A DNA stretch of 61,654 nt, the filler included, from Sluysia triapertura (taxonomy: Eukaryota): assembly GCA_046118255.1 (NCBI GenBank). It is 5 parts of 5 records of this genome, joined end to end, with 100 filler letters (N's around TTAATTAATTAA, not from the genome) between each part and the next. Parts side by side here need not be neighbours in the genome. Positions count along the whole stretch, not along the records: positions 37,126 to 49,689 come from JBJNIA010098549.1; 4 more parts are not named here. One strand, given 5' to 3'. The notes below the pieces were generated by a model. It searched no databases, was not told where the DNA came from, and worked only from the letters and a program-made list of their open reading frames with translations. Below, piece after piece: positions 20,539 through 54,893 of this stretch. Each line of letters begins with the position of its first letter. The stretch's first letter is position 1. A program made the position numbers and the translations under genes.

Positions 20539-21339
20539 AAGGACTTCGACAAATTTCTCAATATAAATTTGAAAAACACTTTCAGAATAACAACAAAATA
20601 CTTCGTGCATCAAATCAATCGATAATAATAAAATTTAACAATTACAGTGGATGAATACTTCCACAATTTTCAGACTTTGAATCTGTATTACCACCAGACA
20701 AATACATGAAGCAGTAGCAGGTTTGTCTGCGGTTGTGATTGTTTATAGGTGTGTAGTAATTTGTTAAATAAGATTGATATATTTACGCAAAATGTATATC
20801 TCATTATAACGATAAAAACAAATGAATTTTAATAGTTAAGAACAATGTCAGTTTAACCCACTGTCCAGTACAACCGGACACACTTTTTTGATATACATTC
20901 ATTACAATTGACTTATTCCCTTCTATAAATTAACCTGTACACCTGGCTACCAGCACTCTATTAGGATAATCAATTAATCTTGTTAAAGATTATGATCATC
21001 AGAAAATTAGATAAATTTACGTCGCTAACATTCACCAAGTACTCAAATACGCATTCCGTAAATTAGTATATTGGAAAATAACTTGTACACCACAAAGTTC
21101 AGAAAATTTTCATGCCTTATTTGCTATTCCAATCAATATTCCAAACCACAAAACAAATTATTAAAAATCATTTCCATTTAACTAAGACCAAATCTAAGCC
21201 ATTTTCTATAATCGCCTACCTTGTTCCCAACCAATTAAAAACTCAGAATGCGATTGTGGTGTCCCGGCCGTCTACTGCAATTTTATCACCAACCACATAC
21301 ACAAATTCATAGATAAAATATACCCCACACATTATCATC

Positions 21340-21571
21340 TCACTACATCTAATACAAACTATAAATTCTGCAATAAAATCATTAATATTAAAATTGTAAT
21401 AAGTGATCGAATTATTATCAAAATTAATTTTATTAACATCTCAATCCTTGCCTTCATCAACACCATTATGAAGAGTACTCTTAAAACTCTTGAGGTCACA
21501 GTGTTACTTATTTTGTACATTTCTCTACTGAATACTGACTTCATATCTTGCTTACTGTGTTTACTGTCATT
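21340..21571 (+). repeat. Dispersed direct repeat, copy 2
   Basis: Matches 16257-16470 with a short extra segment around 21470-21490. Confidence 0.9.
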
Positions 21572-22937
21572 GTCAAGCTTAGCAGTGCCTCCTCGTAATA
21601 CATGTAGTAGATTACAACTCTGTATGATCATTTTTTTGATTAATGTCACATTTCAAGTTGCAGTTTAAAACAATTTACCGAGAAAATTCTACATTTAACT
21701 TATTTGGATAAGGCCGTAATTATAAATATTACAATAGAAATTTGTCTTGGAACCTGGCACAATGTTGCGTCTTATTATATGGTACAACTTATTCAAATAC
21801 AATGAATATTCATAGTTAAAAATCAATGGACATGTCGTGCGCAAAACAGAAAAGAATTTCGTTACATTCTAACATCATATTGACTTCTGAAAAGACTAAG
21901 TATTATTAATCGAGATATTAGTCAAACATGAAGAATTACAAGTCTAGTACAACGACCTTTACTAATTTCACAAATAGTTTGGTACGATTTCAAATTGATC
22001 AATCTGTTACAATTTCAAATTGTTGTAGAATGTGTCAAACATTGTGCGTATGTTCTTATTTAGTTGTTTGTAGAGGAGATTTATTCCATAAGTTTGAAAA
22101 ATCAGTTTGTTACAGAATGTTTTATTTAATTCAATCATGTTAGGATACATGTCGTGGTCCATCAGATTTCAAAGAAATTGGAGTTTGCTATTTAGCTTGC
22201 TTGAGGCCGGTGTGGAATTTCCTGCACAAGTTACTGACAGTATGGCTCCTACTAATACGTCGGACAAAGAGGGTTTCACAGTACTAAACTGCTGCAGATT
22301 TCAAACAGTACTGAACTTCATTCAGTAATTTTGATATTTTAAAAGAACGTATGGTTTGTTCTCCGAGTACCACACATGATTCTGTTCCTGTCCAAGCTCT
22401 TATCTTGCGTTCTTTCGTACAATGTCAATCATTAATAAGTGCTATAAATCATTCTTCAGTTTTACCCGATTTGTTGCGACCTAACAACGAATTGCTCTAA
22501 ACGAGATTTGTCAAGAAAGTCAAAATACGATTAAAGTGAATAATAAGTTTATTTGTGCATTTGAAACCCTTAGGCAAAAGGTTATTTGTGAAATAATCTA
22601 TAATGTTTCTGACATTCTAGTAATAAACAATGAAATTTTTTGTTTTTTGTATTTTTCAATAATAGTAGTCCTTAAGCCCAGTTATAGTCGTATATTATGC
22701 AAACCCAATGATATAGTTCTGTCCTCAAGTCCTAAAACAATGAAACAATTTCCTCTATCAATAAAGTAAAGCTGGACCTCAAGTGATTAATGAGTACTCA
22801 TTGTCAGCGGATAATTTAGCACGGACATGTATATCATATTTTATGAGCAGAAGATGCATCTTATTTATGTAAATAATTGCAGATATTCAACAAGTCTAAA
22901 AAACATATCACGCAGAAGACGAATCAAGATGACCAAC

Positions 22938-24261
22938 CTTTATTATGTCCCCTCTCTGAACCAGTTCGATCGGAATCCTACGTTCTTCGTTTGTCGAGTC
23001 CATCAGAGTCGCTTCAACCGCCTTTAAAGAAAGTAACTTACTGAGTGCTTCTGATGTTTTTCCCTAGAAAAATTAGCAATAAATACGATGTGTGTATCTG
23101 GTTACCTTAGCAACATGTTCCAACCATCGTCCGAGACTCAAAAACGTCACTAACATTGGAGTAGTCTCGAAGAAAGTCTGTGGACTACCACCATTCACTG
23201 AATTTGGATTGGCTAGAGCTATAATCAATACGATACAAGAATAGAAGTAAGACACAGTGATGGCCATGGTGACAAGCACATCCATATTAGCAGTGCCACT
23301 GTACCGTACTGACTTGTACGCTTGGATGTAGAAATGGCGAGCACAATAAAATTGTACGGGACTGGCCAATAAGAATAAAAAGAGATTTTCATAGGATAGG
23401 CCTGGAGTAACGATAAATAAGTGAGTAGAAGTGGAATTGGAATCGTGGGAAGTCATCGGAGTTAAGAAGAACATGAAAATCATCATAACCAGCATGGTCG
23501 GAATTCCGAATATAAGAGAGATGATGAAATCCCTCCTCCATCTGCGAATAGAGAATTAAATTAGATAATAGATAATATAAACCTTTTTGTAACTGATTCA
23601 TATTGTTTTTCCGGTGATTGACTTGTGCCTGAAGGAGTTGCCATGACAGCTTGGAACCCCATTTTCTGAAAAAAATCAGAAACCGTAATATAATCATCTA
23701 ATTAACCTCTATTGCATCAATTATGTTTCTAGGACCAAGTTTACAAGGGCTGTACTTAAATGTACCTCGCTCTGTAGTCAAGGCAACTTTTACTGAAATA
23801 ATGCCATCTAATTTGGAGATGTTCGACTCGATAGTATTGACACAGCTCGAGCAAGTCATGCCATCTATTATCACTTCCAGACTCATCACATTCGGCTCTG
23901 CAATATCAAGTTGTTCGGCTTCGAATCCGAGATTGTCCACCTTGTCTATAATGTCGGACGGCATTACCAACAATGGATCGTAGTAGACTTCTGCAGAAGA
24001 ACCCAGCAGGTTCACTAAGACGGAATCGACTCCTGGAATGAAATTAAATAGAAGTTGAATAAAATATTGTATTCCAGTCAAATAGTGCTCAAGCAGTAAC
24101 CAACCAGTAAGTTTCTGCAACTGTTTCTCGATTGTGTTCACGCACGACGCACAACTCATACCCAGTATTTTTAAGTGGCACTTAGAAAGTGTTGCTATCT
24201 TCTGATCAGAAACTACTCTATTCTTGTTGCTGTCGAAACTAGTTTCAGAAGGCAGCGACAT
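22938..24261 (-). CDS. ATP7: Copper-transporting P1B-ATPase (ATP7-like), partial: two HMA domains, first four TM helices, start of actuator domain
   Basis: Exons 24261-24105, 24032-23707, 23665-23583, 23541-23106, 23063-22938 splice in frame via GT-AG introns of 72, 41, 41 and 42 bp. Motifs [68 protein letters not shown]. Downstream TGE, CPC and DKTGT exons not seen. Confidence 0.93.
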
Positions 24262-24578
24262 TCTGAATAATTGACAAATTAATGACTTCGCTTACTGACC
24301 CACATGTTCTGATTGGGCCGATTGCGGTCAGTGAAATGCATTGTGTTTTTATGAAATTATGAAATTGCAGTTCCACATCTATTAACTATGGAAGAATTAT
24401 ACTCATTTATTGGTGTTTTGGGAGGTTTCAGAATGCAGAATAAGAAAGAACACAAAGATATGCAACATATTGCACAAAATTAGACATTAGTAAACTTAAA
24501 TGATAAGACATTTTAAGAGATATCTATATTATCCCAATTCTTTCAAAAATATTTATATAAACATCAATTTGATATATA

Positions 24579-24821
24579 CAGTGGTGATCAAATATTAGAC
24601 TAAAACAGGAAAAATGTTTTTCTTTGGTTTTCTTAATATTTGCTATCCTGAACCCATAAACCAACCACCAGGATGGAACTTATTGAAACTCTGATAAAAG
24701 TATGGCATCACAATGACGAGATCATCCGTGGCATGCCTTTAAGGATCAGGAAATTATTGGATAACAAAGGAGGGCAAATAAAGTACTGATACAACAGTTT
24801 GTACATATTTGATTTGTAGTA
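24579..24821 (+). mobile_element. Tc1-family transposon, deleted derivative, cut by the gap
   Basis: TA + CAGTGGTGATCAAA terminus. Translation KPTTRMELIETLIKVW...GMPLRIRKLLDNKGGQIKY* matches the Tc1 transposase C-terminus (SMPxR...KGGxTKY). Confidence 0.8.
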
Positions 24822-24921: not shown

Positions 24922-26722
24922 TTTATTGTCAGATGTAGTTTGGTGAAGTGTTAAGGTAGTAGTTGTGAGTATTGTTATTTTATGTGATGAATTGTGTGAT
25001 GATTGTAGTTGCAGAGTGTGATTGTGGTGGATTTTATTTTAATTGAATTATTTTTAATTTTGAGTTAAGGGTTGGCCACTACAAGCGTCTCAAGGATTAG
25101 TTGATGTGGTATTCCAAAACTCTTAAGTTCTCAAAATTTTCTGTTAATAGCTTAATTGTAATTTCAAAATGATGATAAATCAACTTTACCTATGAACAAA
25201 TTCAAATTAATAATTGATTATTTATATGAATACAATAAAAAATAAAAATAAGATTCCATTGAGGCATTATTTATTAAAATTTTATTTTTTCCAATATTTT
25301 TTCGAATTACCTGTTTTAAGTTTGATGAATCCGATGGTTTGATCTCTTTAATAACGTTTTCAGTGATTAATGCATTACATTACTTCGATCTCCATTCAAA
25401 ATATATTTTAGTTTTTAGTTCAAAAATAAATATATTTAATATAAAATGACATTGAAATTGTTGTTTTAACAATTTGTTAATATCAGTATAGAAGGAAAAA
25501 ATATCAATAATAATAAAAACTTTTGACAACATTTTCATTAACTTTTTTATTAGACATTCTAATTTCTAAAACGGAAACATTTGTACGACTCTAAAATTCA
25601 TATAATCCTTCATGATTTAGGACCAAATGTTGAATCATGAATATATTATCTTTTCATTTTAACTATTTCGGTACGATCGGTACGCATTTGTGCTATCTAC
25701 ATCCATAGTCACTGAATACCGTGCCGAAAGTTGTGATTGTAATCTGATAAGTTATAAAACAAATTTTATTATCAAATTAAATTTATTTCTATAATATTTA
25801 TAAATAAAAATAGATTTAATGTATTTCTGATTTATATTAGAATTATTATATTATAAAAACCTTTATCGTACAGTTTTTGATTGCAAATCTTATAAAGAAA
25901 GACCAATTAAACAGGCTAAAACCTATTGATTTTTCATTTATTGTTGAATTTATTATTTGAAAGAATTCAACTGAAATTAGACTGTTTATTCAAAATTTAT
26001 AATAGTAAAGTTGAATTTTTATGTTTGCTTAATTATCATTATTGGTTGGTGTGACAGTGAAGGTCATGCTTTTAGTTCACCGAAGCTTTTCAGAGAAAGA
26101 TGAAATTGAGATGATTTTTTATATTATTTGTTACGGTTTAGAGCTCCTATATAATGCATAATTTATAGGTAGAATATTTGAATCTAAAGTCAATGTCGAT
26201 CAGAATTTTTTAAAAAAATTTTAATTAATTAATAATAATACATAATTTTAGAAAAAGTTAATTTTTTAAAGTAAAAATACCTTATTTATTTGTACATTAA
26301 TATTTTAACAAGTAATCGAGCATGACATTTTGAGTCTATAAAATAGGAAAGGTTGTTTCTGTTTATTCAATATTTGATTAGTTATGCAATCGATTAATAA
26401 AGAAAAGATAACAGATATAATCTTTCCAAATTTTGTTTAAATTATGTCGGTATTTTATTGATTTTCACAAAAACGATTTATTGACTAAAAGTTTGGCAAA
26501 TGAGAATTGTCAATAACGGAGAACATAATAATAGTTTTAGACGACGGATATCCGCTTTTTCTTTTTTCTGTCCTAGTATATATAATAATTATATTTTATT
26601 AGTTTGTTTTATTTACGTATAAATAAGTTATCTTTAATTATATAATTCAAAAGAATAGATTAATAAAATTATATATATAAAATTATTTATTTATTTATAT
26701 TGCATGATTTAAAATAACGATT

Positions 26723-36406: not shown

Positions 36407-37025
36407 CTGCAATAGAAAATGATATAATAAAATTTGAACAAAATGAAAATTTTATAATCATAAATTTATTCAAATCTATATGATAGTATATTATACAATA
36501 ACAACTGATTTTATTAAAGTTTTGATAGCCAGATTTGAATGTATATTATATTTGAATGATATTAAAGTTTTCAAAATATATTGACTTTTTTCGGACTTTT
36601 TCAGAATCTAGTTTTTTATTGATAAAAACACCCTCATGTTGTACATGTAATATTTTTGAAAGTAACAATTTGTTTCTTTATTTCATGTACTGAAGTTGTT
36701 AAAAAGTTGGCGTATATGATTTTCGATCCTTTATAATAATAATATAATATAATTTATATTAATTTATATTGCTCCCATATCTACTGCGTAAGTAATTACC
36801 ATCATATTTCTGAAACAGGAAGAACTTTGCCTTTTGCTTAAATATTTCATAATCTTCCAACAATTTGACATTCTGTGGTAACTAGTTGTATATTTTTGAG
36901 ACATAAACAGTATACAACCTATCACCTAGCTTGTTATCACTGTGAATCCTGTATAGATTATTATTATGTCTCAATGAAATATTCATCTTCATTTCCAATT
37001 TTCGTATTATTTCCAAAAGATATTC

Positions 37026-37125: not shown

Positions 37126-37177
37126 CTAATTTTAACCTTATATTAAATACATAATTCGCGATAATACTATTAAATCG

Positions 37178-37835
37178 TAAAGAAACTGGACCTAGATTCA
37201 TTAAAAGTCCATTCAATCAAGTGGTTGGTGAAGATCAAAATGCAGATTTTGCAACTAAAATTGCTGCACTCATTGTAACATGGTTATTCCATGATGCAGT
37301 TCTTACACAAAAGCATAAAACATATGCAGAAATACAGTGGCAAAGATTACGCTTCGAGTATAAATCAGGCTAAAATGGATTATACTGTACGCGCTGAAAA
37401 CAGTTTCGATAAGAAAGAAATGTCTGCAAAATTAGCCGTAGAACCAGCATTCACAAACAATTTTCCGAATGCTCTTAATATGACTCCATTGCCATAAATG
37501 GGAAAGAGAGAAGAATCAGAAATTGAAATGTTTAAAGAAAAAGAAACCAGATCAAAATTCACTTTCCCACTTCTAAATCATTTCATTATTTTTTGTAATT
37601 GTGAAAACTTATGTATAATGTTGATGGTCATTCTTCGTCAGAAGTAGCATGGTTTAAAAATGGTAAAGAATTAATTAAAAGAAAATATGATCATAATTGT
37701 AATTAATATGTGGAATTGCTTCTTTGGAAATATTCAAAGCTTCAGTAGAAGATGATGGAACATACAGTTGGTGAAGATGCGACATGAATGAAATTGCAAG
37801 TTTAACCAAGTCATACATAAATGTTGCTCAATAAA
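37178..37835 (+). pseudogene. Decayed twitchin/projectin/titin-family segment: two post-kinase I-set Ig domains
   Basis: Across frameshifts: GPRFIKSPFNQVVGEDQNADF..IVTW..SIKHMQKYSGKDY..DYTVRAENSF, then KFTFPL..LCNVDGH..VAWFKNGKEL..SLEIFKASVEDDGTY. No introns visible; small deletions and stops; Ser-rich tail continues to ~38070. Confidence 0.75.
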
Positions 37836-38149
37836 AACCGTTGATAATCTTCCGAATTTTACAGTTATAACCGTTCTACTGACACAGGTGTTAATTCAAA
37901 AAGCTGGGAATGGATTAGTGAAAGTGAAGAAATACGTTCATCTGATTCATTGTTTAGTTCATCGACATCAAAAGTAACCTCATCATTTAATATGTCATCA
38001 TCATCGTCATCTTCGAGAAAAAATACCAATATCATTGAAGAATCCACCGTCTATATTAGCAGCAGTAGTGTAGTGGTCAACATTTATAATTTAAACTCAA
38101 TTAAAATATTAAATCTAACATCTAGAAATTAAAGTTCATTAAAATGCAA

Positions 38150-38967
38150 TTTTCCCAACAGTTATACTTTTTATTTCACAATTACACCATCACAAACATC
38201 ATACAACAACATTTAACAATCTCAACACCTCACTAACTTATATACACCACAAATCAACTTGTATCTCAACCATCTCTAACATTCAGCTCAAACAATTCAT
38301 AACATTCATCCACTAAATACTTCATCAAACAAATCAGAATCACAGTATAAGCTTTACAAATCACAAATATAATAGCATTCAAACAACGCTAACAACTACT
38401 TCAGAAACACAGGTTACCCACACCTAAATCCTTAATCAACCACACCAACTTAAAACCCATTTCACAAATACATATACATCGAAAACAAATACTCGTAACA
38501 TTATAATAAATACTAAAACTTATTTTGTAATCATCATTCAAAATTAAAATAACTTAAATTTTTTAACAAACATTTTAAACCATTCAACTTAATGCATAGA
38601 TCTTATTTTCAAATTATAAACCTTTTAATAAGTTTCAATAAACAATTTCAACATTTTTCATTTCATTTACAATTTTAACTATTGCAATATTCAAAGCAAA
38701 ACTAAGATAACTTGAAAGATTTCATTATCCAACTGTGAAGCAACAACGATAGTCAATACTTACCATACTTTATTACCGTTGTTCCTTCACAGTTTATCAT
38801 TCACTTCTTTTCCTTCTATTTCATTTTTATGTAAGAAACAACAACTAGATAAAGAAAAGATCATGTAAAAAGTTTTAGTAAAGATTTATGCGTTTCTTTT
38901 TAAACAATAACAACAATAACTTCATCATTTCTACTATTACTAGTATTGTTATTGTTGTTATTACTAA

Positions 38968-39013
<46 letters not shown>

Positions 39014-39434
39014 GTCATTAGTGTTATTATTATTACTTTTCTTATCATTAGTACAGTTGTCATCATTATTATTAGTACAACGATTACTAACTCCACCTAA
39101 AGATAAAATACATAAAAATTAAATAAATTAAATTAACATTGCTACAAAATCGATGATAAACCTGGTTGCTGCCATCACCAGTGTTGACAGTCTATGTCAC
39201 TATTACATTAGGCTGTCATCCCTGATGATGGTCGGCCACCAGTTGTTGTTTTTCCAATTTGTTCCATTGCTGAATATCACCCAATCAGACTACAATACAC
39301 CATATACATTAAATAATCAATTCCTGACGTTCTGATTGGGTGATTTAAAAATAGAAAGTTAATCAAAAATCACAATTTGGTAATTCTGTTTGAACGATTA
39401 ATAACTAAAAAATTCTAGTTTTATAAACTTTAAA
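38150..39434 (+). promoter_or_regulatory. Upstream cassette A (C/A-skewed tract, shared motif, (ATT)n, TGACAG/CCAAT region with inverted repeat)
   Basis: Perfect 14-bp inverted repeat ATCACCCAATCAGA 39276-39289 / 39331-39344; TGACAG/CTGTCA near 39185 and 39213; motifs shared with cassettes B and C. Confidence 0.55.
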
Positions 39435-41072
39435 ATGTCCAAAAAAATTATGTCATTAGAGATCAAATCCGTTAAAAATAAAGATCGACTTCTAATACAT
39501 CTAATAAATAGACTAAAAGATGTAACTCCATGGCAAGATAAATTTGATTCTTTTCTTAAAGATGAAACAAAAAGGAATTCCATGTGTGAACAAAATTTAG
39601 AACCTTATTATCTACCTACAGAATATTCGGTGATACTATCGACTGTGTCGACACAGAGGCAAAAAGACTCAAGTGATCACAAAGCCAAATTCTGGGTTCG
39701 CAAAATTTACGAAAACCAATTAGATTATAAAGAAGTCATTATGATTTTGAAATGTAGCGTTAGAGGATTTACATTTTTGATTGTTAAGATAAATCCATTT
39801 AAAGAAATTGAGAATTTAACAAATCAAGCGATTTCGGAATTCGTAATGGGTAACAAGTTATCTATTATTATTTGGTATCAAAAAGAAGCATCTATAAGTA
39901 AGTCGATTATTAGAAGATTCTTGAAACGATGTAAATGTGTACATTCACCTTATTGTCAGCCAACATCTAAACGTTCTCATTTCAAATTGTTGTCTCGTAC
40001 AGTTAGTGATAACTACCTTTCCTTAGAAAATATAACGAGAAAAGTAATATTACTAAATGTGGAAAATACTAAAGCTAAAGAACAATATTTCATGTGGACA
40101 ATTCCGTTCAACACTTTGTCAAAGATGTTTACATTTGATTTAAATATGAATATTAAATTTTACCAATTATCTGATAATCAAAGGAATCGATTATTAGTCT
40201 ACACCGGAAACAGAATGTTGAAATATGTCATCAACAGATCTTCTTCTCTTATTTCTATCAATCAAGAATTTGAAAGATTCAAGGATAACGCTGTTTCTAC
40301 CACAGCATATGTTTCTGAGGATAGTCGTAAGATATTTAGTTTTGATTTACTTAATAACTATATTAGTTATCAGTTTAGTTGGTTATATAATTATTTTTTA
40401 GATAAGATAAATACTGTTTGGATCCCTGAACACTGGACAGTCGGATGGAGAATCGACAATGAAGTTGTGAAAAAAAATAAAATTTTATTAAGTGTAATAA
40501 ATTTTCATTCTTTTTATTTACTTAAATTTAGTCTTAACGTTGTACTTTTGATAAGTAAAAATGATGTAAAAACTACGATTAAAATCATAAACGATGAACG
40601 TGCTAAAGTTACTAAGCTTAGAAATCAAATAGACATGAACCATTGTATTGATAATTATATCCATTATTATGGTTTGAATAAAATTTTAACATTAACTTTA
40701 AATCATGTCTCAAGTCAAAAAAATAATGAGTCAAGCTTAAAAACTTTAAAACTCATACCTGACAGCTATGAAGACAATTCTTTATGTATGTATTTACGTT
40801 TTAAATTACTAACATATACTTACTCTTTTACTGAAATTAAGACGACGCCCTCAACCTTAATACACGCCTTAAACACAGAATTACGCTATAATCCTTTATC
40901 TTTAAAAACTAAATATCTATCGACTTATATTCTACAAACTAATAATATATTAGGTTATAACATGTTAACATTCTTAAATTTGTGTCAGAACATATACCAC
41001 CAAAAATGGTGCCTAGAGTTCTTCATAAAAGAATCATTTTTACAACATTACCCAAAAGCCCTAAATAGGTAA
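39435..41072 (+). CDS. Uninterrupted 545-aa ORF, unknown function
   Basis: 1638 bp open in very AT-rich DNA, AAAATG start, globular-looking composition, CKCVHSPYC cluster. AG|GTAAGT at 41069 overlaps the stop, so the gene may splice onward. No family recognised. Confidence 0.8.
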   Translation: MSKKIMSLEIKSVKNKDRLLIHLINRLKDVTPWQDKFDSFLKDETKRNSMCEQNLEPYYLPTEYSVILSTVSTQRQKDSSDHKAKFWVRKIYENQLDYKEVIMILKCSVRGFTFLIVKINPFKEIENLTNQAISEFVMGNKLSIIIWYQKEASISKSIIRRFLKRCKCVHSPYCQPTSKRSHFKLLSRTVSDNYLSLENITRKVILLNVENTKAKEQYFMWTIPFNTLSKMFTFDLNMNIKFYQLSDNQRNRLLVYTGNRMLKYVINRSSSLISINQEFERFKDNAVSTTAYVSEDSRKIFSFDLLNNYISYQFSWLYNYFLDKINTVWIPEHWTVGWRIDNEVVKKNKILLSVINFHSFYLLKFSLNVVLLISKNDVKTTIKIINDERAKVTKLRNQIDMNHCIDNYIHYYGLNKILTLTLNHVSSQKNNESSLKTLKLIPDSYEDNSLCMYLRFKLLTYTYSFTEIKTTPSTLIHALNTELRYNPLSLKTKYLSTYILQTNNILGYNMLTFLNLCQNIYHQKWCLEFFIKESFLQHYPKALNR

Positions 41073-42999
41073 GTCTAGTACGTTGGTGGACTCACCGTAA
41101 AACATATTTTGCTTTATTCTGTTCTCATCTTAAGAAAACATCAGCAAAAGCCTTAAACGTATTTTTCAATCCTATTTAAATAATTTCGAAGGTCATAAGC
41201 TTATGCTTAAAATAACAAGCATCCTAAGTGCAGTTTTAACAGTAAAATTTAGTAATATGTTAATACAATTAAAAATATTAAAAATAGTAATTATAACAAT
41301 ATGGTCAAACAAATATTATAGAATCAAAATAAATTTTCCTAAAGAAATTTGTCATAATTTTACAGAACAAAAATTATTGTGTATATTGTTATAAAAATTA
41401 GCAAAAATAATTGATAATAAAATAAGATACAAAAATTATTTTAGTAATGTCTTGCCTTTGTTAATGCTTTTGGTAATTCTTCAAAAATACTACAATAATA
41501 ATTACTGATACCATCGATCTATTAAGAGTACTTATATATACATATAGATACAAAAAATACATATGTTTTAAAAATGTTTAAAATTATTAATTTAATTTAA
41601 CTTATCAATAATTTAATACAATATTTACAATTTAATAAATAAAATTATAAATCTTCTAAATGTAATTGTTTTATTTACTTGTGACTTGTTTTATAATTTA
41701 TTTAGGTTACTTTTTTATTATAATTTTCATTGTTTAGTTTCATTTTTAAAAGACTAAATATAGAAATCAGGCAAAAGTGTAATTTACAAATGATCAAGAG
41801 TTTTATTTATATTCTTACAATCTAAGTCTAATAAAATTAGACATCAAAACAGGTGTATATAAACAAATCAATAAGAGTAAACATGAAGTAAAAATAAAAT
41901 CCGTTTATTGCATTATATAATGAATAAAAATTCACTTAGATATAGTTAAAATTATTCAGACTAAAACTAATTCTTTTATTATATTTTAAATTTTAAACAC
42001 TTAGAACAGATAAATATAATGTCCTTTTTATTATATAAAACAATGACAGTTTTTTATTAAATAAATCTCAAATAAATTTGACAAATAAATGTCAAACATA
42101 ATCAATCATAAAATTATGTTTTATTATAACCGACATTTTGAAAACAAAAATCAAGGAAATATACATGTGCAGGAAATTATTTCCCAAAATGTTTATTGCA
42201 TAAAGCAATAAAAAAACAATTAAAATATTTCTATACGAATGTTCTTTTATGGAAAGTTTTATTATAAATTTTATGCATTATTATAAACGGTTGCGTTTAT
42301 ATTTAGAATTGCATTTAAACATTTACCATTATAATTAATATTACTGTTATTATTATATTCATTATTATTTATGTTATTATTATTTTATAATAATAATAAT
42401 TATTATTATTATTATTTTGGAGTTGAAAGTTTTGAAGTTATTATCTTTACCTCAATGAATGTTATATTAAAGTTTAGATACATTGATCTATAAAAGTTGG
42501 TCAACTTATTTATAACAAACTTTTAACACAAATTCAAAATTGAACGTTTATTAACTAAAACAATTGATTTAAAATTTATACTAATAAAACATCAAAGTTA
42601 TTTTTGGTACTACAGTTTCGTATGTCACCAAATATTCGGACTGTGGACTACTAAAGAATAAACAAAAGATATTAAAAACGTATTCATAGTGTAACAAAAG
42701 TTTAATTATTTTAAGTTCTAATTCATCAATTTGATGATCGTTATCATTTTCATATTTTGAATGAATTTGAGGATCACGATATTTTGATAAATTGTTAGAA
42801 TAAGTGAGGCCAATTGTACTGTGTTTTTAAATATTACATTATTAAAATTATTCGAAATCGTGAAATCAGAACTTTCTTGATTTAAATTAATTAAAAGGAT
42901 TACTTTTAATATTAATACATTGGGAAATAAGGTGTTAAGACATTTAATTTTATTTGAAATTACCAAATCTAAATTACATTTTTCATATATTCCAAATTA

Positions 43000-44182
43000 T
43001 GCCATTTTGTTCGGTAACCTGTTTCTAAGTCTAAATAAAAATATAAAAACAAGATAAAATTTAAGATATAAAATTTAAAAATCATTACGTTGCTGCTATC
43101 AACATCATACATCTCTTGAATCGACAGTCTCCATAATTTGAGTAGCAATAGTTGGCAACAGATCCTTTAATCTACTGCGATGTGACGATTGGATCATATA
43201 GTTGAAATTCAGTTCTTGTAGTTGATCGATTGTATGTGAATATTTACATTTAGTTCCAAAATTTGAACATTTACCTTCTTGGTTAGATTCATAAGGTTAG
43301 AGAGCCACTTTAAAACATCATCGAAGTTAAATGGATTGCAATTTATTTATACTAATAGAAAAGCTATTTACTGATGGCTCTAGAATCAAACTATTGATTT
43401 GAGAATTCTCAAAATTCATTTTATGATTATCTTCATCATCACTGCTTGACTCGGATGTTAGATTCAGCATAATCTTTTCTTGCATTAAATTTACTTCTGC
43501 ATTCATAGACGAAGTGTGAAAAGGTTGGATCGTTTCTATATTGAAACCGCACCTTATTACATTTTGTTTAGCAGCAGCAAAAACTTTCTTATATAGTTTA
43601 GAGTAATCATGAACTATATTAGTAACTATTGGTGGGAACTTTAGTTTTTTTATTTCGACCACTCATCTTAATACGACTCATTGCATCACTTCTTATTAGA
43701 AAACTCCATATCTTTTGAGTCATCTCAAGTAATTCTGTACAAGTTCGTATCATGAATTCATAAAAGGCATCTTCTTTTAAGTTATTCTTTAACTTCCATA
43801 TTCCAGTAGAATTGTTAATGCTTAATCCAGCTTTCTTGCAGACACTGTTGATGAGAATTTTCTGAGCACAAACTTCGCGTCTACTTACGTTGAACTTATT
43901 TTCGATGTTGTCCAGCCGAGTGATCATCTGCTCTAGATTCTAAATTAGTATTATTATTGATTTGATTTCTCAAATTATAATGAGCTTCTGTTTTAGTTTC
44001 AGAATTTTCTTCATTTTTTGACCTCTATTAAAATCATTACTTTCTACATTATGCAGAGCACTGAACGCATCATGGACATCTAATACGATCATTCTGAGTC
44101 CACATTTACGATGTTTAGCTAAATCATTCACGTTTGTAGGTTCATTCATTAAATTCATAAAAATATTCACATCCACTAACAA
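43000..44182 (-). pseudogene. Frameshifted gene: coiled coil, BEN/DUF4806-like domain, acidic linker, possible CCCH-like remnants
   Basis: Three successive ORFs, two of the frame changes falling at A-runs: LEQMITRLDNIENKF; IWSFLIRSDAMSRIKMSGRNKK/LKFPPIVTNIVHDY; SSSDDED; downstream GKCSNFGTKCKYSH. Possible 58-bp intron at 43031-43088. Domain call by eye. Confidence 0.5.
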
Positions 44183-45450
44183 TTTTAATTTTTTTAACTT
44201 TTGAATTCAATTAGTATTTAATAATATTCAACAAAAATTGAGCAATAAAAATGCATTTAACTATTCTAGCCTAAAACATTTTACGTACTGACTATTATAT
44301 AGTTGTTATTACATGCAAGCAACACCAATTAAACATAAGCTAGCAAACTTTTAGTGTGCTATATGCGAAGAAACTGCTGCTTGGACAGTCTATCAAGGTA
44401 TAACATAATGACTGAATTTGATTGACTGTCCAATCTAAAAAGCAAATTTAATATGTTATGTCAATTAGTGTTCTTGTCACCATTAAGCCTACAAGCTGAC
44501 AAAATGATGATTAAAAATGGTAACAAATAACTATAATTTAAATCGATACATAGTCACTATGAGTTGTAACTGTTAAATGTTAATTATAAAAATAACGATA
44601 ATAATATGAGAAATAATGATAACAATAATAAAATGATAAAATGATAATGTTTTTAATATAGGAATAAAACTAATTAATATTAATAATAATATAAATTGCC
44701 AAAATCTAAGGAAAAATACATAAAATCTTTATCACTTTTGCTAATACATGATCTTTTCCATAAACACATTATCAAAATATTTCTACATAACAATCTTTAG
44801 TTAAAATATAATCAGTTGAAATTATGTTGAAGTTGTTCTTTTATCTTTGAAAGGTTTAAAAAGGTATGTTCTGATCATATTCTTTAAAAGAGATTTTATT
44901 TAGTGCCTACCGTGATGTGTATGTAAAAAGAATTGATGGAAAGTTGTTCAGAGATAATCAGATATAACTAAAGATGTTTAATAATGTCATTTTGATTGTA
45001 ATATCTACACTTAATTTAAAGTGTTGGTTGATGTTTGATGATGTTAAATGTAAAGGTTATTTTGATATAATAATTTTTCACTTCAAGATGTATAAAAATG
45101 AGAATGATTCTAGTGGGTATGAAGAGATAAAATGTGAAAAAGTGAATGGAAGATGAATGGAAGATGAATGGAAGATGAATGGAAGATGAATGGAAGGTGA
45201 ATGGAAAGTTATGAAATATGAATTTAATATTATATAATTTTGATGTTGTAGAGTATGAAGTGGAAATGTTTTAAGAAGGTTAGGATAAAGTTTTAGTGAA
45301 AGTCAAAGAAATAAAATGTAGAAAGTTTTTAATGTAAGAATAGTTAAAATGTTATGGAGTGTAAATTTGATATTATGCAATTTTATGTTTAGAAGTATTG
45401 AGAATTATAAAATGTTTTGAATATTGATTTTATTGTGTGTTACAGAAATA
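44183..45450 (-). promoter_or_regulatory. Upstream cassette B
   Basis: Inverted repeat TTGGACAGTCTATCAA 44381-44396 / TTGATTGACTGTCCAA 44418-44433 (15/16); several TGACA/TGTCA; AAT-rich 44580-44700; TACATGATCTTTTC 44745-44758; G/T/A-skewed tract beyond. Confidence 0.5.
45143..45207. repeat. Tandem 11-bp repeat (TGAATGGAAGA), ~5-6 copies
   Basis: Directly visible. Confidence 0.92.
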
Positions 45451-45459
45451 AAATTTCAG

Positions 45460-46179
45460 ATTAATTGGCAACCACATCAATAAACTGTTTAATCTTGAAA
45501 TATTTTGATCTTGTTCTGCTTTGTTACGATGCATTTGAGAGACGTTATGATAGTAACAGCTTGACGTGCCATATCATATGCAAATTCCGAAAACATTTAC
45601 TTGTGAGGGGCATTGCTCCGTAAGTTTTGAATATTCATCTAATGACCGACCGTAGCCATTTAATTTCTTCTGTCTGGATATCTATCACTTGAATCGATCC
45701 TTCTACGAGTACTCGTTTCTTAGTTGATTTCACCTTATTCATAGCAATTCCTACTTCGAAATTGTTTTGAAAGCATTTCATTTGATTTCACCGATAGTAA
45801 TCACGAAAAATCTATTTTTACACTCCGAGAATTTTTTAACTAAATGTTTAAAACATAGTTTATCACGTTTATATGTTTCTTGGTCATTAATGAGGGTAAT
45901 GTCATATATGTTTTTGATTGCAATAGTTACAAGATTTACCGGTAATTGTTGAGTATTTTTAATTGTTTGACTAAAACTTCTATGGAATCGGTTCAATATT
46001 ATCATTGAACAAAATTTACTCTTTTGATATTTATATTCGAGAGACATAATTTGTGGATCTTTACTAAATATTGGATGGTTGCTACATTCGTTTAAAAATA
46101 CATTAATTTCTAATTCAATTTGGTTCTTATTTGACATTACATGTTCCTTTGAAGACAGCATCAAACTATTATTCATCAA
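45460..46179 (-). pseudogene. Decayed orphan gene (133-aa ORF plus frameshifted continuation)
   Basis: ORF 46179-45778 continues in shifted frames (MKCFQNNFEVGIAMNKVKSTKKRVLVEGSIQVIDIQTEEIKWLRSVIR*...). No family recognised. Confidence 0.5.
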
Positions 46180-47065
46180 TTTATTAAAATCTTATCATTT
46201 GATAAAAATTCGATGTTGTTATTAAAATTCTGTCTAATTTTATTTTTGTTGCTATTTTTATTATTCTGATTGTTTAGCCTCACTATGATTGGCTGACCAA
46301 TAGGGGTATATGTATTGTCAGTTGTTAATGCTTGTATTACGAAGATGTCCTATTGGTCAGTTAATAACTCACAAATCATGATGATACCAATTAAGTGACT
46401 AACAGTTTCACATTGTGTGAGCTGTAATTTTGTTCTCTGATTATGAGGCTGTCAGTAGTTGACAGTTAATACAGTAGTATTGACTTTATTTAATTTGCAA
46501 CTGTCAATTGCTGACAGGTGATATGAAAATAAAATAATTATAATAATTATTATTATTAACATTATTATATATAAATAATAAAGTATGTAACAAATAATAC
46601 TAAATAATAAAATAAAATAACAAAATTCAGTAAAAAATAAACGCATAAACCTTATAAATCTCTTTAATTCTTTATGTTTTAAGGTCTATTTTCTTTGAAA
46701 TAAAATTATATGAATAAATTTTAATGTGCGTGAATGGTTTCGAATGTATATATATCTGGTTTTGGTATTGTAAAGTTGGAATTTGAAAATGTTTTGAAAT
46801 GAGAATAGTTTTAATGGATCTAACAAAAATAAGGTATAGAAAAAGTTTCAATGCGTTCAGAAAAGGTAATAGTACACTGTTAATGAATGTAATTACGATT
46901 GTAATGTTATGAAATTGTGAGTTAAAATGTTAAAAAAATTAAAGTTTTAACGGATCAAAAGGTAAAATGTAAGATGTTAGGAGATACAATATTTTGTGTG
47001 AAATGATAATTTTAATTTTGAATGAGAGGTTGAACACCACAGTTTTCAAGAAAAGTTTGACAACC
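46180..47065 (-). promoter_or_regulatory. Upstream cassette C
   Basis: Perfect 12-bp inverted repeat CTGACCAATAGG 46293-46304 / 46349-46360; four TGACAG/CTGTCA sites in 46448-46520; AAT-rich tract; AAACGCATAAA 46639-46649; G/T-skewed tract beyond. Confidence 0.55.
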
Positions 47066-47675
47066 TTTTAAAATTTTATAAAAGAAAATAGAAATTTTTC
47101 TTTTGATTTATAAATAAATAAAATGTAACAATAAAAATAGTTTTTATTAAATTTTAAGTGCATACATTTAATGTATCTATAAATATAATACAAATAAATA
47201 CAAAAAGGAAAGACTGAGTCGAGAAAAAGATGATTAATTTGTTCTTGAGAGACCAATTTTCAATATCAAAAATGAATTTAAAATTTTTATTGTTTAATTT
47301 TTTAAAATATTTTATATTAATAATAAATGAACATAAATTTAATAGAGGAACTTTCACTTTATAATCATTAATATTAAGATAGTTGATATTAAAATAAGAA
47401 CCATGTCAGCATTTTTTAAAGTCTGCGTTTCGAAACTGATTATAAATTAATCAAATAAATTAAATTTGTTTTTTAATTATTAAATTAAAATTAAAATTAA
47501 AATCGGCAATATAATATTAAATTATATAATATTTGTTTCAATAAAAATATTACAGTTATAAATAAACACTTTTCCTTGTTATTATTAACGAAAATCTCAT
47601 TAAAAATTAAAAATATATAGTAAATAAAATTGTATATTAAATTCGCAAAATATATAAGCTATTACATCTAAATTT

Positions 47676-47792
47676 CAATAATAATAATTATTATTATTAT
47701 TATTATTATTATTGTAATATTAATATTAATTATAATAATTATAATTATAATAATATTAATATTAATTATAATAATTATAATAATATTAATAT
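47676..47792. repeat. AT-only low-complexity (AAT/ATT) repeat
   Basis: Directly visible. Confidence 0.85.
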
Positions 47793-49689
47793 TCATATTG
47801 ATACTTTTCAGTATTTAAAATAAATACATTTTTCAAAGTATATTATTTAAAAGTACAAAAGCTTAAATATATTATATTTTTCTTAGATATTATATATTAT
47901 ATATTATATTTTTCAAATTTTTTGTGCATTACTTTGTAATTTAATAAATATAAACGAATTAAATTAAATTCACTCAATAATAAAAGATGATTAAGCAAAT
48001 TAATATTATAATCTTCATTCAGAATTTGATTCATTATTTAAATTTGAAAATAAACAAATTTAAGACCGTAAGTAAGTAAAAACAATTGATTAATTATTTC
48101 ATATAAATTTTAATAAACAATGCTGAAATCAAAGAAAACCATTAGCAATCTAGGTTGTCTTTGTGGGAATCATTTTAATTGTTCTTGTAATAAGAAACAC
48201 GTCTATTTAACCGCATAAAATGTCTCCATTAAAATTTGTAACATAATGCTTCTTTTCAATAATACAGTTTTTCTTGCTCTTAACATAATTGGATATCTAT
48301 ATGACTTTTTACATAATTATTTGTCGTCAGTGATTGTTTTATTGATATATTTTTATGTAATGTATATAAAATATATTTTAGTTGAAAGTGAAAAAAGGTT
48401 TCACAAATTTCTATAATAAATTTCTAATTTTAAATATCCATTATACAGTGAGTTATGATTGGTTTTCAGCAACTCTGGATGAGTTTAATTTTTGTGAAAC
48501 CAATTACTTATAATAAAATTAGTGACTGTCTATTCAAATATTCCAAACTGAGAAAGATATATTTAAAATAAGTTGTGTTACATTTTCAATAACAAAGAGG
48601 TAAATATTTCATTTTAATAAAAAATACGTTTTAAAGTAATAGGCGTAAATATTTTTAGAAATAAAATCGAAAACGTGTAATATATGAATTAAAAATAAAA
48701 TAATTCCAACTAGAAACAAATATATTTCTAATTTCAATCCAAATTCCACAACCTGTTCAGAATCAGATTAATAGTATTTTTCAATCTATCTGTCAAAATA
48801 TGCATCATTAATTAATAGTTGTAAGAGTATTGCTGTATCTGTTGAAAAGAATTTCAAAGAATAAAAACCACGCATATGATGGGGTTTTATTTATTTATGA
48901 ATTTGTACCTGTAAGCATTCTTTAATGTTTTGGAATTTCAGGATCTGCTGTTCTGTTTATTCGTGAAATAAACAAATTTAATGAATTCTTTATTTTACAA
49001 TAACAAGAGATTGATTATAATAAGTAAAATGAAAAGGAACAATAAAATAATTCTTTCTTTTATATTTTAATTATTAATTAAAATATCAGTAATATTACAA
49101 ATCACCGGAAAAATGTTAGTCTATTTTAAGTGTGATTTTGGGCATAGAAAACCAAGGAAGCATTAAGTAATTTTAAACTAATTGTGATGTTTTAATGAAA
49201 TTTTCTTAAATGAATATAGATTTCTCTAGTGAATTCAAAACATTATAATTGTTAATACAATCACGAGCAAACACCACCACAAATTATCACGTCTTGCATA
49301 AATAAAATGTTAAATCTTACATAAAACACAAACTCAATTCTGTAATATCATACATACTTTAGAACATTGTAATTTCAATTTAAAACTCGTTACTTAGTAT
49401 GGTTGGTATTATTGTTATTAAAATAAAATACTTGTATAACTATTCTCTACATGTGTTTTACATGTAGGTTTTATATATATTATGTCTATGATGTTTTACC
49501 TATTGTTTATCTATCTTTTATCGTTTTATTATTGTTTAATACTATTCTACTTCCGTGTTTTTGTAACATTTAATACTGTGAAGTCTAATCTAACTATGAA
49601 TAATATGAATACCTGAATGACTATTGAATTAATATGAATTTGTAAAATTATTTTTGTAACTTTATTGATTTTTGTATTATAAACAACTT

Positions 49690-49789: not shown

Positions 49790-52700
49790 TAAATGTGAAC
49801 AATGTTTAAGTTTATAACAAAAAATAACAATAATTTGAAGTAAAAAAGTTGCTTGATTGATATTTACAAATTGTATATAAATTATGTACAATTTTTGTAA
49901 CTGGAAAATGTTGAATTTAATTCACCTGCTTATATAGAATAATAGAGTAAGTTAGTGTGATAATGTGCCAATATCATTTTAGGAATAAAATCACTCGTAT
50001 AGTATAATGTTTTGATAAAATTATTAGTATCATTACTATTATAATGTAGCTTATTATATTTTTACCATTATTATAATTATTATAAATTAATGTAATTTTA
50101 CTATTATCGTTATTGAATTTTCATTTCACAACATCACAGTACTTTTTGGAGCTACTCCTCAACACTAGATCCTAACACATAATAGGCATCACTCAGCCCG
50201 AATGAACTATCCTTTAAAGACATCAATATAACAAAAAATTACTTACTTTAATTGTTTTGCGTAATAATTATGGATATGTATTAAATTAAATTCTTTGTAA
50301 TTTAATTTAACAACTTGTGAATTTAATTGGCTGCAGGAAAAATTAATTATTAATGGATTATCTTACAGGTTTTTTATTATTTAATACCTAATAATTATTC
50401 CTGCATTTTATTGTTTTCTTTATTATTAGTCACAATTCAATTTTGATATTCATTAGTTTCATACGCTCAACGCTATAATTCAATATAATATCTCAGATTT
50501 AATATGGATTTTTTGGCTATTTCTTTGTGTTGTTGCTGCCTTTTGTGCGTAAAATAATTTTTGTGTTTTTAATTCTCGAGTATCAGACTGCTATTAATTG
50601 TCCTCTAAAAATATCTGCTACTTTTACTTGCGACTTGTATTTCAAAATGACATTTTTATTATCAATAAATGTGTTTTCTGAAAGTAAACATTTAAGTATT
50701 TCAGAGAGCAATTTATTTTTAGAAACAATATATTGGAAGATATACTGTATATTTAATGAATACTTTTATTTTATGCAATATAATAATTAGTTGGCCGTAC
50801 AATCCAATTAATTTTGAACCATTTATATTTAAATTAATTATAAACACTTTACTGAATCTGCTATAGTTTTTCTTATTTTTAATATTTTGATTTTGCAGAT
50901 TTTATTGAACATATGTTAATATTATACCGAAAGTGTTCTTAATCGTAACTGTGAATATTAATAGTCAAGTTAGCTCGAAATTAATGTGCATTTTTGATCT
51001 ATATTTTAAATATTTATAAGCACAATTTTTTATGATCTGAAATTTTTTAATAAATTATTGCTGACGAATCTTTTTAAAAATAGTTACAAAATTATTTTTT
51101 AAGTGTAGAAATTAATTTTCTTAAATTCAAAAAAACATAATCGATTTTTATTAGTGGTTGATAACATTATTGACTCTAAACATTAATTAATTCACACTTC
51201 ATTTTTTATGTATGTCTTTTCTTCATTTCTAATTAAACAATGTTTAAGTTTTTTCCTGTTTCATGACGTTCATAGTTTTTACTTTACCAATTAAGCGCGT
51301 CAGCTTCTGGTTTATATTTTATTAATTTAAATGTTTCGAACAATAAGATTACTATAAAATTACTTAACATTATTCGAAATTTGGTAAGACTTAGATTTAA
51401 TTATTTCTCCACACTTGGTTTTGGGAGTGTCTCGATATTTCAAAGTTGCAACAAAATTATTCAATGATTATAGTTTATTGTGAGTACTTTGGACTTGTTC
51501 CTTGACTGTCAAGGATAGAAGTGCTAAATTCTCTAAGAGTTCAATCTAATATTCCCTTAATAATTTATACCAAGCTTTGTAAAATATTTGTTTGCTACAA
51601 CAAATAGATAAAAATTTGTCGTACTTAAGAAAATATTAATAAAATTTTTTGCTATTTTATTTTATTTTAATGATATTTTACTATGATTCTATTTTATTTT
51701 TAATTTTTTAATTTGTATTCACAAATCAATATAAAAATGTTACAAACAGTTATCTTCATGGAACAATATAATATTGTTAGAAAATGTTCTTGCCTATGTA
51801 TTATTTTTCTCTGTTTAGAATTTATATCCAGTAATTATTTAGTTTGCATCAACTTTTTATTCAATTTAATTCCATGTTTCGTTTATATAACTTTTGTTAT
51901 TATTATTCAAATTGAGAATTATTGTAATAAAATCATTAATTTTGTCTAAAATAATCTTGATATTTCGAAATTTATAACAATTGTGATTACGAATTAACTT
52001 CATAGGATTATTAATTTCATCATCTTTTTCTCTCGTATTAAAAAATTTTTAATTCTTATCAAATTTAGTTTCGGCTTAAGGCGTTTACACAACAAAATAT
52101 TAAAATTGTAATTAAAACTGATATAATATAATGTAATACATTAAATAAGTATAAATAAACATAAAAAAATAAAACCAATCTATTAACACAAAACGTGTTA
52201 CCCATATCAAATATACAGCTTGTATTCGATGTCATTAATTCAGCGTAAGTAGATAGTGGTAGTAATTATGTTCTGTTTGACTTTGGTAATCGTAATAAAA
52301 ACATTAATCCACGTTTCAGATAATTCATCATGATAAATAAAAATTTATCAGACGTTATTAATGTTATGACTTCACTCAAATTATGCAATGCTTATTTAGA
52401 AATGAAGTAATCAATCGAATATTAAAATTCGAGTTTTCTCTTACTAAGATATTGATTGTATTATTTGAAGAAATTTTCACATAAATTAAAGCATAAATTA
52501 ATATTTTATCTAACACATTATTTTCATTGATAAAAGCAGAGTAAGCATTCGAATTAATTAACTTTTAATAGTGCTTCCTTTTAATATGAAACAATACATT
52601 GTCAGAACAATCATGAAATTTTGTAAATTCAATGATTAAAATAGTTGAATAGAGAACAAATTCCATTCCATCAACTACTATAACAATTTTACTTTTAACT

Positions 52701-53610
52701 TTAGTGACTTTTTTACTAAAGTTTACTAGCTTTACTATAGTCATGCTCTGGTTCAATGATTACATTGTAACGTTTTTTTCAAAAAATACGTTTACTATTA
52801 ACATCACACTGCTTATAGTATTTGTATACATTATTAGCTTGAGTATGTGTAGTATCAAAATCTGTTTTAAATTTAACATCTAAACTTTTCGCAATTTGCA
52901 TATGTATATTTTCATTATACGATTTCAATGCATGTCTAAAATTTAAATATCTACCAATGTATAAGACTTTCTTGCTTGACAAAGTTTACTTTTAATCAAA
53001 TATATCCGGTTAATTGTAGAATTAGAAGTAACTCGAGCATCTGATTCCATTTCTGTAATACTGATTCTGAACACGTTATACCGATTACATTGATTATAAT
53101 TAAAATTTGAACTTGGAAATTTTTATTGACAATATTTTCAATAATTTTTTAAATAACCTAGTACTAGGGTTATTTTGATTAACAATTGATTTTTTATTTT
53201 TAATTTAATATCTTATATTTCAATAATTTAAAATAATTTAATTTAATATAATATAATTAAATTTTTAAAAATTCAAGATTCTGAAATCGGCAAAGCTCTT
53301 TCTCTTACAGAAAATTTATAATATGTGATTTATTTTGAGTACTTAAAAGGAATATTATGATCGATTAAATATCTTAAGTGATTTTGGATACTTATTTCAT
53401 GATAATAGTGGTAGTAGTAGTAGTAGTACAAATAATGACAATAATAATAGTGATAGTAATAGTAATAATAATACTACTACTATTAATAAGGTATATACAA
53501 ATGTACATATATACATAGAAACACTTATACATACATAAAGAAAGACAGCAATCAAAGTTTTGCAACGACAATAAAAATATACAAGATTAAAAAATTAAGA
53601 TTTTATTAGG

Positions 53611-53747
53611 ACTGTGCTTATGTTTTGTATGTTTTATGTAGTGATTTGATATGTTGTAGTTTACTTAATAGCTTTGTTTATGTAAGATGTATTTATTTGT
53701 GAGGTGTTTGTTTGTGATTATTATAAGTTTATCTGAAGTTCACTACA
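53611..53747 (-). repeat. GT-rich dispersed repeat ending in CACTACA; probable LTR end
   Basis: Similar to 20420-20538. Confidence 0.5.
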
Positions 53748-54893
53748 TAATCGATCTTGACTCTGACTATATAGCCAATTATCTCTATGAACATATCACT
53801 ATTATTTTTCATATTATATACTTATTTATTTATATCCGCCTTCCTGTTTAGTGGATTTTTCCATGCCTTACTGGCGCTTGATTTTGATCCGTAATATTTT
53901 CTGGATGCTAATTAAGTGTGATGGATTTCTGACATCTTTCACATTTGTTTATTAGTTTATGGCTTCTGTTTTGTTTCTGATTACTTTTTTGGTTTTTATA
54001 AAGGTGCTTTTTTAAGTTGTAGGTTTTACTTTTGGCAAATTATGTGCCGAATGATTTTATTTTTAAATCATTTCAACAATATTTATAGTATCCATAATTT
54101 TTTTAAAATATTTTCATTTTACAATTGTTTTCCATATTAATAATTAATTATGAATAATAATTATTAACTATTGTGAATAAATACTCAAAAGCAGCTAAAA
54201 TACTAAAACTTTCTTTAAATAATTTACAATCTTCCAGTTTCATAGCATCTGCTTTGTAAATTTTGAAACAGAAACAATATATAACCTGTCACTTATATCA
54301 CTGTGTGCTTGGTATAGAATTATATTTTAAAGTTATTTATTTGGGTTCTCGTTTTTATTATATTTAGGAAATATTAAGGTCTTCATAACGTAAGTATATT
54401 CATAGATTATCCTGATTTTGCATTCTTTTGCTTTTAGAGGTATTCATTGTAATTCTTTCAGATATAGTGTTTCTTACGATTATTCTCGTCAATTGATTCA
54501 GTACTAATTATGACTTTCTCACTTTCTTATGGTAATGAATATAATAAACTATTATTACTATTATAATTTATTAGTTTTTCTCTATTAATAAATTACCTCA
54601 TATAATGTATTTTCTTTAATTGGTATTCATATTTTTTGATAATGAATTTAATTATTTTCAATAGAGAAATTTTAATGAATTTTAATTTAATTTTCCCATT
54701 TATTACACTTTGTTTTGAAATTTTTAAAATAAAATATTCAATTCAATTTTTTAGTAGGAAATGCAACCATAAATATAATTATTGTAGAATAGTATTGATT
54801 TTTTAAACTCGGTTAAATTAAAATTTATATTTAATACAAACTAAATCTTTAGGTACATATTTTTATCAAAAGCAAATGTAATTTTTATTTTAG

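Follow-up and report, generated by a model that had tools for sequence, protein, structure and literature searches.

The upstream DNA of three unrelated genes in the genome of Sluysia triapertura (assembly GCA_046118255.1) shows the same ordered layout, which raises the question of how one cassette came to stand in front of different genes. The stretch analysed, hereafter the window, is 61,654 nt long, has a GC content of 24%, contains gaps, and also carries exons of seven-transmembrane (7TM) receptor and kelch type as well as part of an ATP7 copper pump. A preliminary description of positions 38150-47065 listed, toward each gene, a C/A-skewed tract, a shared motif, an ATT/AAT-rich tract and a GC-richer TGACAG/CCAAT block, and proposed a common cassette on different, perhaps mobile, cargo. 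Here we report that the three genes belong to multi-copy insertions with TG...CA-type ends, named units A, B and C. We propose that these are probably solo long terminal repeats (LTRs) from LTR-retrotransposon families that are related, and that the U3 region of each family would hold a separate accessory gene in antisense orientation.

Layout, ends and nesting of units A, B and C

The layout was recovered at all three genes, on the strand that follows each gene. Unit A (38069-41082, plus strand, 3,014 bp) opens with a C/A tract (38069-38850) whose minus strand is rich in G/T (G 0.21, C 0.05) and which may correspond to U5. It is followed by the shared motif (38854-38895), which reads CATAAA, 19 nt, CA and a U-rich run on the minus strand and is a candidate poly(A) signal and site, by an ATT/AAT tract (38900-39130), putatively the R region, and by a TGACA/CCAAT block (39135-39434), a putative two-way promoter in which the inverted repeat described earlier is a perfect 14-nt CCAAT pair (39276-39289/39331-39344). 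The cargo, an open reading frame (ORF), occupies 39435-41072 on the plus strand. Unit B (42815-45476, minus strand, 2,662 bp) has its cargo at 43105-44156 on the minus strand and a TGACA/CCAAT block at 44180-44519; then come, on the plus strand, a motif region (44520-44758: AAT tract, CATAAA, 22 nt, CA, U-rich run) and a G/T tract (44760-45476), a putative U5 with an 11-nt tandem repeat at 45132-45217. Unit C (42605-47041, minus strand) shows the same succession, with the 5' part of its cargo at 45477-46176 (minus strand), the block at 46180-46519, a motif region at 46520-46690 (AAT tract, then an AATAAA-CG-CATAAA motif and a U-rich run) and another putative U5, the G/T tract at 46690-47041, the last two on the plus strand. 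Read on the G/T strand, the order in A, B and C is a TGTACT-type end, antisense cargo, TGACA/CCAAT block, AAT tract, CATAAA or AATAAA, U-rich run, G/T tract and CA end. In A and B a CA follows the hexamer at 19-22 nt, and the long tract contains about 0.2 G and 0.05 C.

A scan of C versus G in 300-nt windows (window standard deviation 0.195) placed the three strongest skew tracts of the whole 61.6 kb in the cassettes of A, B and C (up to +0.77, -0.92 and -0.62). The skew switches on at a sharp cassette end, TGTAGTGG/TGTGGTTG/TGTGGTGT, and its onset coincides with the TGT end in four of the four units tested, the C/G counts passing from 52/50, 49/56, 28/19 and 35/36 before it to 69/13, 63/8, 60/16 and 50/10 after it. 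The exact end pattern, itself derived from these four ends, has four matches in the window for 0.33 expected, all at unit ends (A at 38069, C at 47041, a further unit D at 25083, and B). The 340 nt before the gene starts of A, B and C contain 6, 5 and 9 TGACA/CCAAT words, the last being the densest block in the window, against a window mean of 1.3; these counts are reached by 1.5%, 2.9% and 0.2% of 340-nt windows. The two shared strings were found where they had been reported and in the expected orientation, and they fared unequally in 2,000 local shuffles, counted for any such word and at matching distance: the 14-mer common to A and B (44745-44758 in B) is beyond chance (16 and 1 of the 2,000), whereas the 11-mer common to A and C (46639-46649 in C) is weak alone (587 and 99). 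B and C have no common 11-mer with at least three G/C, a relaxed pattern devised post hoc (TTTATGYRTTT) has four matches versus 1.6 expected, and the cassette motif pattern had no match in metagenome contigs. At 42285-42427, just beyond the proposed end of C, a TTGCGTTT word precedes an ATT tract, an arrangement that resembles the cassette motif and may be a general 3'-end signal of this genome.

The nesting of the units was established with contigs of one public run (X1, containing 0.54 of sampled words) aligned at 80% likeness to 37130-49680; the figures come from a small part of each contig table, and the indel evidence from 12 of 105 rows. Four contigs (depth 63.7) join 42807 to 45478, skipping 2,670 bases, uniting both halves of C and leaving the target site present once. 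In window coordinates the skipped segment runs from 42815 to 45476; on the gene strand it starts with TGTGGTTGCCAA and finishes with CACAGTACA (TGT...ACA), between ATTGA and ATTGG, which match at four of five positions. Unit B is therefore an insertion into the coding DNA of C with a 5-bp target duplication. Unit C, split by B, measures 1.77 kb without B and its duplication; its ends are TGTGGTGTTCAA ... TAGTACCA (TG...CA), its flanks AAAAC / AAAAT also match at four of five positions, the depth drops to background outside it, and one identical contig ends within the unit, 39 nt short of the boundary at 47041. Unit A begins with TGTAGTGGTCAA and has its probable right end at ...AAGTCTAGTACG, its termini being TGT...ACG with the last base off TG...CA; AAGTCTAGTAC is common to this right end (41082) and to a shorter unit, E (21255-21951), whose flanks match at three of five positions, while A shows no target duplication. 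The extent first given needs correcting, since the cassette starts at 38069, 81 nt further left, and C reaches about 42605 and contains B. Inverted identity at the termini amounts to 0-3 nt, and the units have no terminal direct repeat, end alignments being at shuffle level in four of four units. In inverted alignments of 200 nt, B and E stayed at shuffle level, A was borderline (12/200), and the score of C came from an internal AT-rich match. A two-LTR non-autonomous element, of the kind named TRIM or LARD, was rejected on the direct end alignments.

Only the gene of unit A is intact. Its 545-codon frame would be open by chance with a probability of about 1e-21, and its stop lies 10 nt inside the probable unit end. 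No credible homologue of it was found: none of 7,256 candidates reached E 0.1, the Atlas gave no usable match, PHROGs and phage genomes gave nothing credible, and the single match among 1.84 billion representatives, a Pedobacter protein with about 40 immunoglobulin (Ig)-like repeats, was dropped as repeat-inflated (30 bits over a single stretch). Single-sequence folds were unusable (pLDDT, the predicted local distance difference test, 33 and 44), and a PDB search with the second returned nothing at E 0.001. Five sites at which all contigs differ from ORF A (three non-synonymous, two synonymous) are too few for a selection test. A splice-like context, with GTAAGT at the end of ORF A, is seen at 41070-41143.

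B and C had been described as genes with slightly different starts; the ATGs are at 44156 and 46176, and neither copy is intact. In cargo B the frame breaks near 44010, 43940 and 43660, with stops near 43330-43297. A CCCH zinc-finger-like piece at about 43234-43296 is hit by six CCCH Pfam models at E 0.006-0.14, all below cut-off, and the first cysteine position of its motif (C-x8-C-x5-C-x3-H) is not open in this copy. The best PDB match is tristetraprolin (E 0.024), and 8 of 13 matches at E up to 10 have names that we take to denote CCCH-type proteins. An intron-like stretch follows cargo B at 43031-43087. The first frame of cargo C is open for 132 codons and gave 65 homologue candidates, none credible; it breaks near 45780, 45660 and 45590 and is interrupted by B, the remainder lying at 42605-42814. 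Tiny introns, for which the splice contexts are poor, or assembly error may have caused the breaks in B and C. As first reported, the three products are mutually dissimilar; at E 0.01 they match neither one another nor any other part of the window, and none of them has a credible homologue.

The units exist in many copies. In total, 6,481 contigs were placed on the 12.5 kb (525 at at least 99%, 1,264 at 95-99%, 2,249 at 90-95% and 2,443 below 90%), 4,692 of them less than 95% alike; the depth is 13.2 and 11.4 in two flank contigs whose sequence is identical to the window. In unit A the summed depth, which is not a copy number, is 52,000-54,000 over the C/A tract, the deepest contig pile; it falls to 10,600 across the motif and the AAT tract, to 2,460 in the TGACA/CCAAT block and to 650-890 along the ORF, and stands at 5,370 in the bin with the right end. 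It is 650-970 over cargo B, 270-340 over cargo C and 2,070-2,450 over the tracts of both, and mostly 33-82, up to 217, in flanking bins. The joint 38900-44612 links an A-type and a B-type cassette in another copy. Numerous diverged versions are thus present of the cassette as well as of the cargo, with far more of the cassette, and it is this one run that supports the copy number. The cassette is indeed a common repeat, as one objection had anticipated, and occurs without an ORF at 21255-21951, but the ORFs of A, B and C lie inside element ends, so that the link between cassette and ORF is not accidental. The idea of a common cassette on different mobile cargo is borne out: the units have defined ends, one of them shows a target duplication together with an empty site, they are nested, and their diverged copies are numerous. 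The idea of a co-regulated orphan cluster is abandoned because the units are insertions: the anatomy is unusual, and it is that of mobile DNA, not of a host gene cluster.

Origin of the units: a solo-LTR reading and its alternatives

Published LTRs, cited here from parts of the respective texts, have short inverted ends, an AATAAA signal and a GT-rich stretch downstream of it (PMC3601003), a poly(A) site 10-30 nt past the signal and most of their conservation within or beside R and U5 (PMC2664473), and most LTR elements make a 5-bp duplication (PMC6839031). The order of parts on the G/T strand and the depth profile of our units fit this plan, and for this reason we consider it probable that A, B and C are solo LTRs. 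The element RNA would run on the G/T-rich strand, starting just past the TGACA/CCAAT block, cross the AAT tract (R) and be cleaved at the CA located about 20 nt after the CATAAA/AATAAA of the shared motif, the G/T tract acting as downstream element (U5). The TGACA/CCAAT block may also fire the other way, as the back face of the LTR promoter, and transcribe the cargo gene. An integrase would insert the full element with a 5-bp duplication, and recombination between its two LTRs would leave a single one, including cargo and promoter. R and U5 would stay alike between families while U3 and cargo differ, which would account for the same cassette standing before different genes. The cassette had been regarded as upstream control DNA of the genes; its distal half, with its poly(A) signal and G/T-rich tract, more likely belongs to the opposite-strand transcript. 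The TG...CA ends, three bases of inverted identity and 5-bp duplication are typical of a retroviral-type integrase, and the 697 bp of unit E are an ordinary LTR size. The opposite orientation fits worse, because the stop codon of A, 10 nt from the end, leaves no room for R and U5.

Several points weigh against this reading. Inspection by eye showed neither a primer-binding site nor a polypurine tract or partner LTR next to any of the five units, and a Pfam scan of 118 of 195 selected frames (most of the others overlap known genes, lie antisense to them or were scanned separately) found no gag, reverse transcriptase or integrase; such absences are expected of solo LTRs, yet because of them the LTR identity is something that we infer. 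The U5-like tracts are long (350-780 nt), A and B have CATAAA as their hexamer and words of this kind occur frequently at 24% GC, and the unit ends differ from the TGTTRNR...YNYAACA consensus given for animal Metaviridae (PMC3601003, in part). The flanks of A (AGTAG / TTGGT) show no match and one identical contig ends at 41110 instead of 41082, so that its right end or flank is less certain; in C, the cargo frame continues beyond the proposed end. The duplications of C and E are weak alone, several ends being candidates, and only that of B is firm, since chance pairs with one or two mismatches occur as well. Finally, the contrast in depth between the U5-like part (about 53,000), the cargo (270-970) and the identical flank contigs (11-13) is one of summed contig depth, to which low-complexity tracts can add by cross-matching at 80%, and run X1 is perhaps the source of the assembly itself.

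The alternative that survives best, although we find it unlikely, is a non-autonomous DNA transposon without terminal inverted repeats (TIRs), in which an integrase-like transposase would read two unlike ends and a fixed promoter cassette would be combined with swappable, Pack-like cargo. It would agree with the depth of unit A, greater at the ends (about 53,000 and 5,370) than in the middle (650-890), with all copies seen being single units, with the intron-bearing ATP7 piece found 0.8 kb behind end D, and with the existence of gene-fragment-carrying, integrase-like DNA transposons with TG...CA ends (GingerRoot, PMC6839031, in part). However, Ginger-type and Pack-TIR elements have TIRs, where our units have 0-3 nt, this reading would not explain why the poly(A)-like motif and the G/T tract face away from the cargo, and there is no transposase within A, B or C; a classic TIR transposon is not supported, for want of TIRs. 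It is unlikely, in our estimation, that the units form a gene-shuttle class of their own, having neither TIRs nor paired LTRs but a fixed, abundant promoter cassette, two unlike integrase-type ends and interchangeable cargo. We are equally hesitant about the corollary that this cargo would comprise orphan genes and captured host pieces (the ATP7 piece behind D, an Ig copy beside A) and would seed expressed genes.

The remaining explanations are all very improbable. Host genes of the ordinary kind that share a promoter design and have a skewed tract upstream (the sites being presumably of NF-Y and TALE type) would be in keeping with the intact ORF A and with the CCCAATCAGAAC box and C/A tract upstream of the ATP7 start at 24261; but that tract starts at the same TGT end, which makes it a fourth element, likeness is 80-95% for most placed contigs, neither B nor C is intact, and the presence of B inside the coding DNA of C, with its empty site, largely refutes the idea. 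Segments of an endogenous, polydnavirus-like DNA virus or a large virus-like element would explain compact orphan ORFs, a shared cis layout and clustering, but the units lack flanking direct repeats and any phage, PHROG or Pfam viral match, and they are single, with a 5-bp duplication in B and a short ORF-less form. Helitrons have TC...CTRR ends and a 3' hairpin and make no target duplication. Ends of a Helitron or of a non-LTR retroelement (CTAG end, AAT tail) are hinted at by A and E ending near CTAG-T and by the steep fall of depth from one end of A, and are contradicted by the proven TGT...ACA ends of B with their duplication, by the internal position of the AAT tract and by the lack of a GC-rich hairpin at the ends.

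Units D and E and neighbouring repeats

Unit E (21255-21951, plus strand, 697 bp; ends TGTGGTGTCC ... AAGTCTAGTACA, TGT...ACA) has no ATG-initiated ORF of 100 codons; both differences between its flanks, GCGAT / ACGAC, are transitions. A second, truncated copy of its core lies at 16237-16477 (87% identical to 21320-21579). Unit D (24922-25083, minus strand) provides a fourth example of the end seen in A, B and C (TGTAGTGGCCAA), here with a C/A tract that runs into a scaffold gap; its other end was not found. Further G/T-rich tracts ending in CACTACA or CAGTACA and preceded by AAT tracts occur at 53600-53747, 20400-20538 (plus strand) and 16880-17046 (plus strand); the final 140 nt of the first two give a good alignment, the left ends were not found, and all three are likely to represent further LTR-like families. 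A pairing of 17306 with 20538 was dropped, as 17306 falls within a decayed DDE_1 (pogo/Tigger-like) transposon at 17137-18040 (Pfam E 0.006; inverted ends by eye).

The ATP7 piece (22935-24264, minus strand) comprises two HMA domains, the membrane region and the beginning of the A domain, with short introns, and covers residues about 417-803 of 1,467, no later exon being found in the window. Among 120 listed of 1,138 matches its exon is at most 56% identical, the best being from molluscs, a nemertean and a brachiopod, which marks the host as a divergent bilaterian. The piece may have been captured as cargo, or it may belong to a true gene whose intron is very long. Between it and end D lie the gap and, at 24652-24821 (plus strand, between gap and ATP7 promoter), what we take to be a C-terminal remnant of a Tc1-like transposase, with no Pfam match; D may therefore equally be an insertion upstream of a true ATP7 gene with a long intron.

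Immediately left of unit A, 37155-38130 (plus strand) holds a broken Ig I-set gene copy with weak Pfam matches and about tenfold single-copy depth. One contig has extra letters beginning GTAAGT at 37800-37806, which suggests an intron absent from this copy. Elsewhere in the window, 14575-15054 and 36732-37023 form a 77% identical pair whose peptide, without a Pfam match, is presumably akin to the C-terminus of an L2/CR1 long interspersed nuclear element (LINE), and an AT-rich tandem array with units of about 20 nt occupies 1-540. Rfam gave no match at gathering score in the window and two chance-level matches in 37900-47200, so no known non-coding RNA or ribozyme is present here; a bacterial promoter scan, a method not apt for such DNA, stayed at shuffle level.

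Significance and comparison with known systems

If the units are LTRs, a full element would hold its accessory gene twice and each solo LTR would leave a whole gene with its promoter, a direct route for retrotransposons to scatter orphan genes and a place to seek anti-silencing or RNA-regulating factors, cargo B having a CCCH-like finger. If they are not, their ends define an unclassified element type. Annotators of genomes like this one should be aware that compact orphan genes with upstream motifs in common can be cargo of such elements.

In the literature searched (mostly non-subscription texts, without supplements, RepBase and Dfam being outside the search), no invertebrate LTRs with long, family-specific antisense ORFs were found. 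The systems compared below are again taken from parts of the cited texts. GingerRoot and Pack-TIR elements are likewise multi-copy units with captured or orphan coding cargo, and the GingerRoot ends are integrase-like; GingerRoot has TIRs of 100-150 bp and a 6-bp duplication and Pack-TIRs also have TIRs, unlike the units described here (PMC6839031, PMC8277862). LTR-mediated retrocopies sit between parts of LTR elements (PMC5131818). The giant Gypsy element Burro of planarians resembles our case as an abundant invertebrate LTR element with extra domains and accessory ORFs, but, compared by description, its extras are internal, and the part of the text used mentions no ORF inside the LTR (PMC6431247). 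The plant Gypsy element Retand has antisense accessory genes of possibly regulatory function; these lie between pol and the 3' LTR, so that solo LTRs would lose them, and share one conserved domain (TRP28) instead of being unrelated cargo (PMC11963269).

With solo LTRs of Ty3/Gypsy, BEL/Pao and Copia elements, the units share short inverted TG...CA ends, a poly(A)-like hexamer followed by a GT-rich tract, R/U5-like conservation and, in B, a 5-bp duplication (PMC3601003, PMC2664473); they differ from ordinary solo LTRs in their 1.8-3.0 kb with a gene-sized ORF, their very long G/T tract, their off-consensus ends and the absence of a parent element in the window. ORFs within LTRs are themselves known, as sag of mouse mammary tumour virus (MMTV), lentiviral nef and the antisense ORFs of HML2/3/4/8 (PMC2664473). 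MMTV sag and nef are sense ORFs, whereas the cargo here would be antisense. The HML ORFs come closer, being located within the LTR, mostly antisense, and unrelated between families and to known proteins; they have about 100 codons, no start methionine and a length near chance, whereas unit A, in an invertebrate, carries 545 codons from an ATG (PMC2664473).

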